Positions 21,001 to 27,000 of a stretch of 64,000 nt of DNA are shown here, piece after piece (position 1 is the stretch's first letter; the number at the start of each line of letters is the position of its first letter). Source of the stretch: an uncultured Nitrospiraceae bacterium (lineage in GTDB: Bacteria > Nitrospirota > Nitrospiria > Nitrospirales > Nitrospiraceae); contig CAVSTP010000004.1 in assembly GCA_963730935.1 (NCBI GenBank), forward strand, positions 256,001 to 320,000. The letters are read 5' to 3'. The position numbers were made by a program.

Positions 21001-24000
21001 GGAAACCGCAGCGACCTGCTACTGACCTCAGCACTCATCACTCAGTGATGCAGCAGCCAGCGGTTATACAGGGCGAGAGGTTGACTGGTCAAGGGTGAGC
21101 AGGTCGAACATCCTTCTAGAAGACTGTTTTGCTGACTTCTGAACTGTGGAGACTCTCGGTTCCTTCGGTATCAACCGCGGTGACCGAGAAGTAATATGTG
21201 CGCCCGCCTGTGAGATTACCGATGGTATATGTGGTGGCGTTCCCCACCGCGAGCGGTGTCCCATAGCCACCTGATTGTGTGCCCATGTAGACTTTGTATC
21301 CCGCGACATTGGTCTCCGAATTGGCATCCCAGCTGAGGGTCGCCGTACCAGTGCTGGTTGGCATTGCCAGGGTAAGGGTCACGGGGATCGCTTGAGGACT
21401 ATTGGAAGATCCTGACGCGCTGACGGTGATCACTGTGCTGTACGATCCCGCGGCCAGACCGGTGGTCGAGACGCTTGCGCTGATGCTATCGGTCTCGGTC
21501 GTCGTCGTGCCGCTCGAGATATTAAGGGCAAGCCACGCGGCCGGCTCGGTCATCGTCCACGTCAACGTCCCGCCGGTCGGATTCGACAGCGTAATTGGTT
21601 TCGCGAGCGGCGGCGGACCTCCAGCCACGCCTGAAAAGTTCAGACTCGTCGGATTGAGCAACATGCTCGGCGTGACAGCGGCAGTTCCGCCGGTGACCAC
21701 AAGCTTGACCGGCACGGCTGTAATTTGTGTTCTCTTCTTATCGTCAATGGCGATGCGGATTGTCCCATTATAGGTACCCGCGACCATCCCAGCTGCGTTG
21801 ACTTGGACAACAATCTGATCCTGCTCGCGTGCGATCGTTCCTGATGCAGGGCTGATCGTCATCCAGGCCGTGTCGCCCGACGAATTCCAGGCCCGTGGAA
21901 CCAGAGATTTGCTGCTGAACGTCACCGTTTGAGAGGCCGGTGTGGGACTCGTGCTTGATGCAGCATAGGAGAGCGCCGTCGGGGCGACCGGGAATGCGAG
22001 TCCTTCCGATGTCATTGCAAGCGCGCTCGAAGCAGCGAGGAACAATGCCGTTCGGAGAGTGGTGACAACCGCCGCAGCGTTGATGTGATGCATCGCCCCC
22101 TCCTGTTGGTCGTGTGGAACGTAGCAACGCACATGCCAGTCCGACCAAGGGACACCTTGTCCAGCGCCGCACGAAATTCTTTGAAATCATGACCAGCGTG
22201 AAGCGTCCGAAGGAAATCTCTGTAGGGACGACCAACCATTGTTGTGCAGCCTTGAGCATTCCGAGAGGGTTGTCATGCAAGAACAATAAAATAATGTTCA
22301 GATTCTCCAAACTCCAGTAGGATAGGCCTAGCGTTTTCAGGAACTCGGTCGGACATGCCAAACCTCCATATCGTTTCGGATACCGCTGTGCCTGCCGCCG
22401 GTCCAAGACCGGTCGTCTTTCCGCTCAAACTGGTCTTGCAATGGTGTATCGGCATCCTTGCAGCCTTCGCGCTGGGGAGCTGGCTTGTCTGGTGGGCCGC
22501 CCTGGTGCAGCGCGCCTTTTCGCTCGAGGACATCCGGTCGGCCTGTCAGCGCGTGATGCCGGAATCTGTGGACCGCTGCGTCGACACGGTTACGATCCAA
22601 CGAGGAGGCGCTCGACGATGAAACTGTGGATCGCTGTCGTCGCACTGCTCATGCTGGCAGGCGTCGAAAGCCAGGCGGTGTTGGCCCAAGACACGGAGGA
22701 ACGGCGGCCGAGATTCGAGCTGGGTCTCGGGGCCTGGATCAGTACCGGAGAAACCAAGTGGGCGCACAACGCGTCGTCAATTCCGGGACTTGGCAATCCG
22801 ACCTCGAAACTGACGTACGAAGACTCCGGGACCAACGTCTTCGAACTCACCGCGAAGCTATGGATCACTCCCAAGTGGTTCGGGCGACTGACCGGCGGAT
22901 ACGCCGGAATCGGCGGCGGACGTTTGACCGACGACGATTACCTGGCTGTCGACGGTGGAGCGCCGTCATCGCAAACGATCAGCGATATCTCCGGCGACAG
23001 CATGTGGTATCTCAATGCGGAGGTCGGCAGGCGGATTGTGGAGTTCCCTCACTCTCGAGGCTACTTGGACGTCTTCGGCGGCTACCAGTACTGGTACCAG
23101 CGCTATACGGCCAATGGACTAGGGCAGGTGTCTTGCTCGACGGCCGGGCAAACCGTGGATCTGGATCCCAGCTCGCCCGGCAATCAGCCTTTGTGCAATC
23201 CGAACAGCTCAGTCAGCAGCACCATTCCCGTCATCACCAATACGACGCAATGGCACTCGATCCGGGTTGGAGGAACGATCGAATACCGGTTCACGCGCCG
23301 GTTGAGCCTGCAAAGCACCGTGGCATTGATTCCACTCAGCATCGTGGACAACAAGGATGTCCATCATCTGCGCCCCGACTTGGGTCAAAACCCAAGTCTT
23401 TCGATGTTGGGCTATGGCATCGGTGCCGATGCGGACATCGGTGCGCGCTTCATGATCATTAAAAATCTCTTTGCGAGCGTCGGCTATCGTATCTGGTGGA
23501 ACCAGATGCTTGATGGCAACGTGACCTTTTACAACTCGAACGGCTCCTCGGATCAATTTCCGCTCACGGAGTTCCAGACGTTCCGTCACGGCCTCACGTT
23601 TGGCTTGAACTATTCTTTCTAGGGTACTGTTTATGAGCGGGCAGACTGCGTTTTCAACGGCGGCGGCCGGAAGGCATGGTTTCGTCCTCGTAGCGGGTGA
23701 ACAGACGTCTGGCTTCGGGATGCAAGTAGTTTGGGTGGCCGTGGGGAATGCCGATTGTTCGGAAAAGCGGTGTCAGCTTGCCGTCCGGATGAAGGTAGCC
23801 GGCCCGTAAAGGTACCGTCCGCTTGCTGTGTTTGATTAGGTAGCAGGGGGTAGTTCGGATGGATGTCAGCCAGTCGGCGATATCGTGCGGATTACCGATC
23901 GAGGCGGAGAGGAGCAAGAGCCTCGCTTGAGACGGGCAGAAAATAATGGTTTCTTCCCAGACGACTCCACGCTCCGGGTCCGCGAGGTACTGGGATTCGT

Positions 24001-27000
24001 CCATGATCACGAGCCCTAAGGTGTCGAGCCGCAAATCGATTTCTCCACCGGCTGCGTCGTAGAGCAGATTGCGCAGGATCTCGGTGGTCATGATCAATAG
24101 CGGCGCCTGTGCGTTGTCGCGCCGGTCGCCCGTCAGAATCCCGACCCGTTCTGCGCCGAAGATGCGAGAAAATTCCGTGTATTTCGTGTTCGACAGCGCC
24201 TTGAGCGGCGAGGTATAGATCACTGTGCGGTTTTCCTCCATGGCGCGCCGCGCCGCCTCCACGGCGACGTAGGTTTTTCCGCTTCCCGTCGGCACGCTCA
24301 CGATCACGTCGCCCTGTTGCAACTTTGCCAGCGCCTCTTCCTGCCAGGGGTCGGGAACGAACGGCTGCGGTGGAGGCACGCCGATCCCTTCCAACCAGGC
24401 GCCCAGTGCAATGGGAGGTTCATGGTGTTCCGGCTCGTGATGGGTGGGATGAGAGCGACCGCCCGCCGCTGCTCTCGGCCGCTCAACGGCGGGGCGTACG
24501 GCGGGTCTAACTGGCTGGGACCTCCGGTCGGCGATCAACGCCAGTAAATCCGACTCGAACCCTTGGCGGTTTTCTGCCGAATGTCGCAGCAATAGCTCGA
24601 TCAGCCGGCGCTTCCCAGCACGAAAATGCCGATGCACCCGGCCGCTTGCGAGCCGATGGAGAAGATCAACCGGTTGTTCGGCGAGAATCCGTTCGAGTTC
24701 TTCAGTGGTCACGAGTGCGCTCGATCCTTGTCATGGAAGCTCTTCCAACACGCCCCGACGCAGTGTCGCAATCGCCTGGGAGGCGCTCTCCGCCAGCGAC
24801 GGGTGCGTGTCCCTCAACCCATGCAGCTGCGAGAGAAATTCCAGGGTCCGCGCGAGTAGCCGATAGATGTCACCTTCCGCCATCGTGGTTTTCTTGCACA
24901 GTCCGATCCACGTAAGCGTAGGATCGCCAATCCACTGTTCGGTGATCGCGGCGATATCGGCCCGGAGAAGCGGAGGATCTTCGAATGGCGAGAGCGATTC
25001 AGCCAATTTTCGCACCTGCGCCAGCAGAGAGGCCAGGCCCGGGCTGATGCGGGGGAATGCGCCCGGACGGTCATCGTCGTGCGCAATACTCGACATGACA
25101 GCTGCCAATAATGCCGGCGAGGCGCCCGAGAAGGCTTCCGCACGGACGAGCTCCGTGATCAAGAGCGAATGGTCGATGCGGATGAGCCTGGCCCATTCAC
25201 CGGTTTCCGTCAGTTGCACGGTGGGCGAGAGGTAGCCGAAGCGCTGCAGGGCATCGATCTTTTCCTGAAAGCGGTGCCACAGACTGGTTCGGAGCGCCTG
25301 AATCGCTTTCATATGACGCTGTTGTTCCTGACGGAGCTTTGAGGCATGTGCGTGATCTTTCTGACAGGCGGACCGTGACGGACAGGTGGGGCAGGAAAAA
25401 TCACCTAACGTCTGCACGATAGCGTCGGGAATCAACTCCTCTTTGGGAACCAGGATCGGCAGGACGGGCAGGCGAGGGGGCAATTCTTCCAATGCTCGGA
25501 TGAGCTGTTCGATGCTTTCCGGCGTGCACCAGGGATAGACCGGCGCTTCCACGCAGTCCAGCACATGGTCGAACACTTCGGTGACGATCGCCGCCGGACA
25601 TTCCGTGATCGCGCCTCCCGGTCGCAGCAACGTCACCATTGGACTTTTCTGTCCCTTGCTCCGGTATTGTCTTAATACGACACCGCGGCTTTTTGAGAGG
25701 CCAGCCACGCGTCCGGCTGTGAGGAAATGAAACCGCGCCGCTACCTCAGGCGGCTCATGTCTTCTGACCGGTGTCCGGTGCGACCGTTGACGGCGGACGT
25801 GGTCGAACAGCTGCCATTGGGAAATCCAGTCGGTGCAGACACGGGGGCCGTAGGGCTCGAGCTGCCGGTGAATGTCGTCGAGTTTTCGTTCGAGCACCTC
25901 GGCACGCTGATTCAGTTGGAATTGGGCAAAACTCTTTGCGAGGATCGGTTGCATCTGATCGAGTGGATGGGCCTTGAGCAGATTCAACACCATCGGATAG
26001 CTGATCACGAACTGGCTGTTGATCGCTTCCGGCTGCCCCGTCAGGCCCTTGGTGATGACGCCAAGATCGATATAGGGCGAGGGTGTGACGATCGCAAACC
26101 CCACGAGATCTTTCCCGCGACGACCCGCGCGGCCGGCGACCTGCTGTACTTCGCCGATCGTGAGGTCCGTAAAATCGCGCGCTTTGCGGATACTGGATTG
26201 GGTAATGACCACTGTCCGCGCGGGAAAATCGACGCCCGCCGCCAAGGTTGTCGTGGCAAACACCGCGTCGAGACAGCCGTTGCGCATCAACTCCTCGACG
26301 GCGATTTTCCAGGAAGGCAGATGGCCAGCATGATGCGCTGCGACACCGATGCGCTGGACCGTCGGAATCAGCGGATGCTCGGCGATGCTCGGATATTGGT
26401 CGATGACCTGCTTGAGGACATTGCCGATTGCCTCCTGGCGGGCCGGAGGCAGGAACGAGCGCGTATGATCGAAGGACTCCATCGCTTCATCGCAGGCGCG
26501 TCTCGACGTCAGGAACACGATGGCCGGGGTGAGGTGTTTCTGTCGAAGGGCTTCGATCAGGTCAACCGGATGTATCGAGGGAGGCATTCAGCTTCATACC
26601 CTTCGAAATGACGACAAGACCGGATTCTGTGACTTTGAAGCGTTGTGCATCGGCGGCGAGGTCGTATCCAATCTCGGTCTTGGGCGGGATACTCACGTCC
26701 TTGTCGATGATGGCGCGCCTGATGCGGCACTGTTCGCCGATCACCACATTTTCCATGATCACCGACTCCCGGACATCCGCGTGGTCTTGAACTCGAACGT
26801 TGGGGGAGAGGACTGAGGTCTGGACTCGGCCGCCGGCGATGATGCACCCGCCGCACACAATAGAGTCCAAGGCGACGCCCATGCGGCCGCCCTGGTAATC
26901 CTGCGCGAACACGAACTTGGCGGGCGGGAATTGGCCTTGATACGTGCGGATGGGCCACTGCTGGTCGTACAGATTGAACAGCGGATCGACGGCGACCAAA

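Follow-up and report, generated by a model that had tools for sequence, protein, structure and literature searches.

To our knowledge, SF2 motors are generally held to need both RecA domains on one polypeptide chain. The HelY protein of M. smegmatis is reportedly an RNA-activated 3'-5' helicase. The closest described systems are single chains: actinobacterial HelY joins DEAD, Helicase_C and DSHCT domains, and Mtr4, Ski2 and FRH are the closest solved matches to both halves of the system described here. Two reports (PMC9023267, PMC11725892) describe how the domains follow one another (RecA1, RecA2, winged helix, arch, helical bundle) and what the motifs do, and a further report (PMC7157823) describes Streptomyces HelY as ribosome-associated under tetracycline, its loss having a twofold effect.

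We analyzed a window of 64,000 nucleotides from an uncultured Nitrospiraceae bacterium (contig CAVSTP010000004.1, positions 256,001 to 320,000), in which the same sum of domains is divided between two genes. Along the minus strand chain A comes first, followed by chain B, and both open frames lie where the genome-wide survey's note had put them (Table 1). Chain A, named "ATP-dependent RNA helicase HelY" in the source annotation, begins with M(P/A)(P/S)xIHP and ends in ELP before the stop. No second or full-length helicase copy was found in this genome.

Table 1. Positions of the two helicase genes, their motifs and domains in the window
Feature	Position	Strand	Description or basis
Chain A gene	24731-26587	minus	618 aa; the larger part of RecA2, then winged helix, arch and DSHCT helical bundle
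Chain B gene	23654-24712	minus	352 aa; small helical domain at the N-terminus, then a flexible linker, RecA1, the inter-domain linker, the first strands of RecA2 and a tail rich in Arg
A/B intergenic gap	24713-24730	minus	18 nt here; -4 to 217 nt in relatives
Motif IV, IVFLTSRR, A 23-30	26498-26521	minus	motif reading
Motif VI, QVAGRAGRRG, A 149-158, arginine finger	26114-26143	minus	touches B in the complex model
RecA2 strand, A 162-167	26087-26104	minus	modeled to pair with B 300-307
Arch-like insertion, A about 246-440	25268-25852	minus	sequence alignment
DSHCT domain, A 458-614	24746-25216	minus	Pfam-type domain match
Probable SAP/Rho-N-like helix-loop-helix domain, B 1-66	24515-24712	minus	fold matches; families f1-f3
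Walker A, PTGSGKT, B 141-147	24272-24292	minus	motif reading
Motif II, DESQ, B 238-241	23990-24001	minus	motif reading
Inter-domain linker and beta-hairpin of the RecA2 sheet, B 298-316	23765-23821	minus	motif rows and complex model
glgC	26562-27803 (start approximate)	minus	adjacent gene without a functional role in the system; its final 26 nt run into the start of the chain A gene

Chain A carries Helicase_C (79-158) and DSHCT (458-614; 88 bits against a cut-off of 22.7), and chain B a DEAD domain (122-275) with PTGSGKT, DESQ and SAS. The RecA1 motifs (Q motif, I, Ia, Ib, II and III) all lie on B and the RecA2 motifs (IV, IVa, V and VI) all on A; across 45 pairs from Nitrospirales and 16 further split pairs, motifs I, Ia, II and III of B and IV, IVa, V and VI of A are invariant or nearly so, and the catalytic D-E, Walker A and the arginine finger show no exception. 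The ATPase site must form from two chains, as the survey's note had argued; Walker A and DESQ are on B and motif VI is on A. Motif II departs from DExH in Nitrospirales, reading DESQ in 42 of 45 rows and DEAQ in the other 3, which belong to family f4, with the catalytic DE retained; other split clades keep DExH. This replacement of His by Gln could alter the coupling between ATP and RNA, an observation that counts against the helicase reading proposed below. The halves are complementary without overlap and both are under purifying selection, with dN/dS of 0.056-0.11 for A and 0.085-0.095 for B over four pairs in which dS is near saturation (1.3-2.4).

By sequence, the closest solved structures of both chains are Mtr4/Ski2 (E 1e-35 for A and 1e-41 for B), and by fold the best solved match of B is also of the Mtr4/Ski2/FRH type. 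A 11-245 matches residues 398-634 of yeast Mtr4, A 442-610 likewise aligns to Mtr4, and B 114-309 aligns to Mtr4 144-332; together the chains tile a fused 913-aa bacterial relative, B over residues 16-252 and A over residues 284-906. The insertion of ~200 aa at the arch position of A also aligns to a fused bacterial relative, and its four cysteines (251, 399, 402 and 408) probably form a Zn site, judging from sequence. The scores do not place the pair in the Hel308/Brr2 branch, with 60-72 bits for each half scored alone against Hel308 cut-offs of 887-1216 and with Mtr4/Ski2 ranking well above Hel308. The pair has RecA1 and RecA2 domains, a winged helix and a DSHCT bundle as in the Mtr4/Ski2/HelY (DSHCT) branch and differs from its members in not holding both RecA domains on one polypeptide.

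The cut does not fall at the RecA1/RecA2 boundary, as had been supposed. Model and alignment place it inside RecA2, about 45 residues beyond the linker, which B retains, in a variable basic loop. The stretch that holds the cut spans 57 to 105 residues in fused relatives (105 of 120 parsed), and the tails of split RecA1 chains are rich in Arg and Lys. The cut corresponds to Mtr4 333-397, part of which is presumably disordered in Mtr4 crystals. With the mechanical linker left whole on a single chain, a break in this loop would be cheap, and this would account for the recurrence of the cut.

A model of the A-B complex scored 0.82 against 0.00 for the best control, on a scale where 116 of 157 solved complexes attained the pass mark, as did 2 of 215 mismatched pairs; separate runs share at least 78% of contacts, and partner pLDDT is at least 75. 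This pass may be owed to likeness to the solved Mtr4/Ski2 structures. The predicted interface comprises 231-251 confident contacts and includes strand pairing of B 300-307 with A 162-167, so that the linker and strand of B would complete the sheet of A; its size and the strand pairing suggest an obligate complex.

We propose, with a probability of roughly 0.7, that this is a housekeeping Ski2-like (HelY/Mtr4-type) RNA helicase cut into two genes, which works as a stable 1:1 heterodimer with predicted 3'-5' polarity. There are two genes, their motifs are intact, and they are retained together when unlinked. In the modeled heterodimer, B would supply RecA1, the inter-domain linker and the paired strand, and the winged helix and helical bundle of A would pack on RecA1, completing the usual ring. 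ATP would be bound between Walker A and DExQ of B and motifs Va and VI of A, and RNA would cross motifs Ia and Ib of B and motifs IV and V of A. The dimer would then track 3' to 5' on RNA like HelY and Mtr4, with a possible role in RNA turnover or ribosome upkeep.

Residues 1-66 of B are present in families f1-f3 and were not found in f4, where a profile run over five genomes gave no credible copy and one weak match carrying a stop. Sequence searches of Pfam and PDB returned nothing significant, and no Pfam SAP or Rho_N match was obtained in 38 members; Foldseek gave a best E of 3.0, and the atlas leads lay at 0.77-0.78. The seven best fold rows are all of the SAP/Rho-N helix-extended-loop-helix type, with Z of 6.1-7.9, all below 8. 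They include FAN1 463-535 (Z 7.9, rmsd 3.3, 63 aligned), the PIAS1 N-terminal domain (Z 7.7, rmsd 2.5, 63 aligned), a rice SUMO-ligase SAP (Z 6.6, rmsd 2.9, 65 aligned), Rho 1-48 (Z 6.5, rmsd 2.2, 47 aligned) and T4 endonuclease VII 107-157 (Z 6.1, rmsd 2.1, 49 aligned). The conserved basic residues R31, K34 and R36 would be compatible with nucleic acid binding. In the fourth split clade, the RecA1 chain bears a helical N-terminal extension of roughly 130-190 aa in four of five unlinked genomes, and kinship between this extension and the Nitrospirales domain was not detected (hhalign probability 1.7%; atlas blank). B appears to have gained N-terminal domains in two split lineages, the two being unrelated as far as this comparison goes.

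These additions, the lack of a confident contact between the SAP-like domain and A in the model, and the separate regulation that unlinked genes allow would fit a scheme in which the halves join only on RNA or conditionally, the RecA1 subunit with its N-terminal domain acting as a targeting or switch subunit. We consider such regulated assembly unlikely: the large, strand-paired interface argues for an obligate complex, and 12 of 60 loci show a 4-nt overlap between the stop of A and the start of B, a layout seen where synthesis is coupled 1:1. It is less probable again that a heterodimer forms but serves in Nitrospirales as an RNA clamp or RNP remodeler and not as a processive unwinder. The DE(S/A)Q and SAS motifs would be the reason, the motif II change being present in all 45 Nitrospirales rows while His is retained in the other split clades; however, no variation occurs in the D-E, Walker A or the arginine finger, and the Suv3 family, which has a DExQ box according to its Pfam name, is described as RNA-unwinding (PMC13261141).

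Of 121 genomes from the order, 116 have B, in line with the survey's description of the pair as core in Nitrospirales. A first protein search was saturated with near-identical Nitrospira sequences. Of the five genomes without B, four are without DSHCT as well; in the fifth, A stands 160 bp from its locus and contig end. The statement that RecA2 precedes RecA1 holds for adjacent pairs: the halves are adjacent and swapped in 60 of 66 Nitrospirales genomes and apart in the remaining 6, which include family f4, where both are retained though apart in 5 of 5 genomes. Adjacency of A and B is dispensable. Flanking genes vary by family (glgC in f1; an MFS transporter, riboflavin synthase and recO in f2; secA and ispH in Pyrinomonadaceae); a functional operon partner was rejected on this ground, and the neighbors give no hint of the helicase substrate. 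Two observations would suit halves with separate roles or decaying fragments, namely genome G107, where the halves lie 32 kb apart and A is in three pieces (decay or an assembly error), and genus g18, where both halves are absent from three of four genomes of 71-93% completeness. Against this very improbable reading stand the low dN/dS of both chains, the interface-dependent motifs preserved on each, and the co-presence and co-absence of A and B.

That these are two real genes and not a frameshift artefact, as the survey's note had held, is borne out by gaps, frames and stops that vary over the 60 swapped-adjacent loci. The frame offset is 0, 1 or 2 in 12, 30 and 18 of them, the stop of A is TGA, TAA or TAG in 46, 11 and 3, and A and B are in frame with no further stop in only four; the open frame of B never exceeds 626 aa anywhere in the order. 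RNA-library contigs of relatives span both genes, and two records bridge the gap between A and B; transcription, strand and level are not readable from these contigs. Scans for promoters and terminators gave counts no different from chance (2 vs 1.6 and 5 vs 4.8). One circularly permuted chain made by TGA read-through, frameshifting or splicing might be imagined from this window, where B lies in frame behind the lone TGA of A, but the 60-locus comparison makes this incidental, unlinked pairs exist, RNA-library contigs show no joint at the A/B junction, and no permuted single chain occurs among 120 longer relatives of B (best 120 of 6,169 hits) or proteins P0121-P0292, a negative that is weak evidence outside those two sets; this least credible reading is largely refuted.

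Outside the order the picture is mixed. The orthologue was not found in 194 other genomes of the phylum, in agreement with the survey's claim of absence, but the same cut occurs in three further clades, of which two are in Blastocatellia and one carries Bdellovibrionota-type labels; there the halves stand in normal order or are unlinked, next to fused relatives. Part of the ~800 other genomes with such neighboring genes that the survey mentioned probably belongs to these clades. In the Blastocatellia class, every genome with a lone A-type gene has exactly one stand-alone RecA1 gene elsewhere (15 of 15), and close relatives in Pyrinomonadaceae show fused, adjacent-split and dispersed states. 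The same clades appear in the RecA1 tree and in the RecA2 tree, and a tree test (30 rows, LG+G4) rejected one single split clade. The nearest fused relatives, with 32% over A and as much as 59% over the RecA1 core, are proteins of Thermodesulfobacteriota type and of Pyrinomonadaceae, in a clade that stands apart from outgroup sequences. The split is the main phenomenon, and the swapped order is a lineage-specific arrangement; peculiar to Nitrospirales are only that order, DE(S/A)Q and B's probable SAP/Rho-N-like domain. The swap would be secondary, either by re-clustering of dispersed halves or by tandem duplication with complementary loss. Family f4 is basal in one tree, nested in another and open in two, so the swap may have preceded or followed dispersal, and the SAP-like domain may have been gained or lost.

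A break inside the motor that is kept order-wide (116 of 121) and recurs at one site in other phyla marks where the architecture tolerates one; from its presence in several unrelated bacterial groups, the motor apparently needs no covalent bond between its halves. A and B would form a natural two-part helicase for tests of inter-domain coupling and supply a split site that engineers of switchable helicases could use as it stands; the Pyrinomonadaceae set is a clean series for the study of gene fission, and the nitrite-oxidizing Nitrospirales would gain an RNA helicase whose halves are annotated as two partial proteins. More speculatively, it is conceivable, as a long shot, that the RecA1 half of this two-subunit SF2 motor has become an independently expressed, exchangeable targeting subunit: one and the same loop would have been severed in several lineages, the genes would have moved apart, and the freed RecA1 subunit would have acquired an N-terminal domain at least twice, with helicase activity switched on by assembly on a chosen RNA.

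Among known arrangements, circularly permuted proteins also place the C-terminal part first, but on one chain, whereas here the parts are separate genes. Naturally split reverse gyrase resembles A/B as an SF2-containing enzyme made from two genes. Its cut lies outside the two-RecA motor. The Lhr "large helicase-related protein" of Nanoarchaeota is split at different sites (NEQ003/409 and Nst172/239, as listed in Table 1 of PMC3655853). That protein belongs to another family and to reduced symbiont genomes, whereas the split described here has one recurrent cut site in genomes of 1.6 to >8 Mb.

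Two minus-strand ORFs separated by 18 nt lie where the genome-wide survey's note had placed them (table), and for both of their products, chain A and chain B, Mtr4/Ski2 is the top match among solved structures. Because the chains tile one fused 913-aa bacterial relative, chain B covering residues 16-252 and chain A 284-906, they are complementary halves without overlap; no further copy of the helicase was found elsewhere in the source genome, and the NCBI record for one relative is already titled 'putative Helicase (C-terminal)'. We put the probability that they form a two-chain heterodimeric helicase at roughly 0.7.

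Features of the window and sets of loci referred to in the text
Feature	Position or loci	Strand	Remark
Chain A ORF	24731-26587	minus	618 aa; Helicase_C + DSHCT
Chain B ORF	23654-24712	minus	352 aa; DEAD
Convergent gene downstream of chain B	22441-23622	plus	weak, below-cut-off match to a Protochlamydia outer-membrane protein family; conserved beside chain B in many loci of family f1
BACON/fibronectin-III protein	21116-22132	minus	
End of ORF 20473-20925	~20850-20925		translation resembles that of a presumed tRNA gene read on its opposite strand
Animal-type haem peroxidase	17766-19397	minus	
Apparent outer-membrane/RND efflux set	28433-34030	plus	from translation only
glgC overlap/neighbour loci	window 26562-26587; L051-L060, L070, L184, L191; L031-L033, L069		
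Short A-type chains	L171-L175, L177-L179, L207-L231		

Since chain B stands in frame after a single TGA in the window, read-through was tested on 70 loci, or 66 distinct genomes once four duplicates were dropped. Chain A lies immediately upstream of chain B in 60 of the 66; at these 60 swapped loci the gap spans -4 to 217 nt, frame offsets of 0, 1 and 2 occur in 12, 30 and 18 cases, chain A ends in TGA, TAA or TAG in 46, 11 and 3, a 4-nt stop-start overlap occurs at 12, and only four are in frame without an additional stop. The variable gap, all three frames and all three stops argue strongly against recoding into one chain and bear out the view that these are two genes, not a frameshift artefact. 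No permuted single chain appeared among the longer relatives of chain B (best 120 of 6,169) or among proteins P0121-P0292. In two studies, RNA-library contigs of relatives run across the gap and show neither an indel nor a joint, though as evidence this is weak.

Chain B is present in 116 of 121 Nitrospirales genomes and all 23 genera, in line with the note's description of the split as core; of the five genomes without it, four also lack DSHCT and one has chain A at a contig end. The orthologue was absent from 194 phylum genomes outside the order, in agreement with the note's negative in 51. In eleven of the 194, weak (~30%) matches were confined to the RecA2 region; their frames (genomes among G148-G312) span 543-983 aa, mostly ~720 aa, and the latter are like Hel308-type helicases by size alone. 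Among 71 genomes of the class that lie outside the order, a single one (G349, locus L119) has DSHCT, as a fused 746-aa frame of a different clade. The rule that the RecA2 gene precedes the RecA1 gene holds in the 60 genomes and fails where the halves are unlinked, namely in family f4 and genomes G107 and G097. The f4 halves are separate in five of five genomes, short contigs limiting the view in all but G012 (13.6 kb apart) and G004 (different large contigs); in G107 (L123, L124) they lie 32 kb apart, with chain A in three pieces, which may reflect decay or assembly error. Adjacency of the two genes is dispensable.

Confinement of the split to Nitrospirales did not hold, as the same cut occurs in Blastocatellia/Acidobacteriota and in a Bdellovibrionota-labelled clade. 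A search of 50% representatives returned counterparts of chain A (A-type proteins) whose start falls at the same place and whose identity is only 33-43%, and three further split groups were seen at their loci. Among the best 80 matches listed, 57 Blastocatellia/Acidobacteriota loci comprised 9 fused, 25 split in normal order (RecA1 gene first) and 16 where the A-type gene stands by itself, the other 7 being truncated or too short. Of the 80 metagenome loci, 49 show the split in normal order and none is swapped; the A-type gene is alone at 7, the arrangement is unclear at 3, and 21 are short or truncated. Labels in the top clade are Bdellovibrionota, Oligoflexia, Dadabacteria and Deltaproteobacteria. 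Within the class to which one Pyrinomonadaceae genome belongs, DSHCT was present in 61 of 151 genomes (a tally that includes one unpublished genome, used for no other result), four of the 61 having frames of 894-987 aa; 20 loci from this class (2 fused, 14 A-type alone and 4 with neighbouring halves in normal order) brought a fourth split clade to light. Where the A-type gene is alone, each of 15 genomes tested had exactly one stand-alone RecA1 gene elsewhere. Among the loci examined and matches listed, the swapped order is found only in Nitrospirales. Certain split A-type chains, at ~430 aa in Pyrinomonadaceae and ~470 aa in the Bdellovibrionota-labelled clade, are far shorter and lack most of the arch. 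At L241, L243 and L246, ~240 open codons with no RecA1 match precede the A-type gene; they may belong to an N-terminal fusion or simply be long open frames.

The proposed RecA1/RecA2 division is right in placing RecA1 on chain B, but this chain also holds an R-x-V-x-L linker, then a beta-hairpin at 305-315 and a helix at 332-345, and its C-terminal tail is Arg/Lys-rich (on average 3.1 of the final 10 residues, 61 chains). From linker to motif IV, fused relatives have 57-105 residues (median 63; 105 of 120 parsed, best 120 of 6,169) and the split pair 55+20. The cut stretch corresponds to Mtr4 333-397, part of which is probably disordered in Mtr4 crystals. Confirmation of that disorder was not found in passages from PMC5931499 or PMC11725892. 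The A+B complex model scored 0.82 (best control, 0.00), above a score mark that 116 of 157 solved complexes reach, as do 2 of 215 mismatched pairs; the runs had at least 78% of their contacts in common, with partner pLDDT of at least 75. The surest modelled contacts join B 300-307 to A 162-167; chain A would contribute motif VI, its winged helix and its helical bundle to the interface, and chain B Walker A and motif II. Because split-gene halves can pass through likeness to solved Mtr4, the model supports geometry, not binding.

Residues 1-66 of chain B are predicted, with pLDDT 87, to form a small helical domain, and the linker behind it is of low confidence. Its top fold matches (Z 6.1-7.9) are FAN1 463-535, PIAS1, a rice SAP domain, Rho 1-48 and T4 endonuclease VII, which can be classed together as SAP/HeH-type; the assignment is only probable, given Z below 8, a Foldseek E of 3.0, atlas scores below 0.9 and no match in a Pfam search. 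The domain is conserved (dN/dS 0.06-0.14 in three of four pairs), was not found in f4 and makes no confident contact with A in the complex model. In the fourth split clade, four of five unlinked RecA1 genes have another N-terminal extension, for which no homology to this domain was detected; at L318-L321 the extension is conserved, helical and roughly 130-190 aa.

Helicase motifs, with roles assigned from PMC9023267, are invariant or nearly so in 61 split pairs; Nitrospirales motif II (DESQ in 42 of 45, DEAQ in 3) differs from that of other split pairs, and four arch cysteines are kept. Across four pairs, dN/dS lies at 0.056-0.11 in chain A and 0.085-0.095 in chain B, with dS near saturation. 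Neighbouring genes differ between families, so this looks like a housekeeping gene without an operon partner. By descent, A+B should be a 3'-5' RNA helicase. Streptomyces HelY is higher on ribosomes under tetracycline, with a twofold deletion effect (PMC7157823), and in M. tuberculosis HelY is one of the RNA-decay-related proteins measured (PMC7509114). We infer a role in RNA turnover or ribosome upkeep in Nitrospirales.

RecA2-to-C-terminus trees require at least five fused/split changes, and the RecA1 tree recovers the same clades; a single clade of all split rows was rejected (16 of 30 rows, p-AU 3.6e-95, LG+G4). With fused outgroups, repeated fission is the simplest reading, but the tree backbone is poorly resolved and one early fission with later re-fusions may also fit. 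The swapped order may have arisen by duplication and complementary loss, or dispersed halves may have come to lie together again. In all 13 loci with both on one strand, glgC overlaps the chain A start by precisely 26 nt, and in f4 it lies divergent, upstream of the RecA1 gene; this arrangement is possibly a trace of rearrangement.

No report of a split HelY/Ski2-like helicase was found in open-access full text (subscription journals and supplements were outside scope), and a term search of PMC10946056, on archaeal Ski2-like helicases, gave no mention of HelY or fission. The split helicase is real, conserved and wider than the note said: it is probably a two-chain Ski2-like motor of a known family in which one loop seems to have been cut repeatedly. 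Nanoarchaeota Lhr, according to a table in PMC3655853, is a split helicase too.
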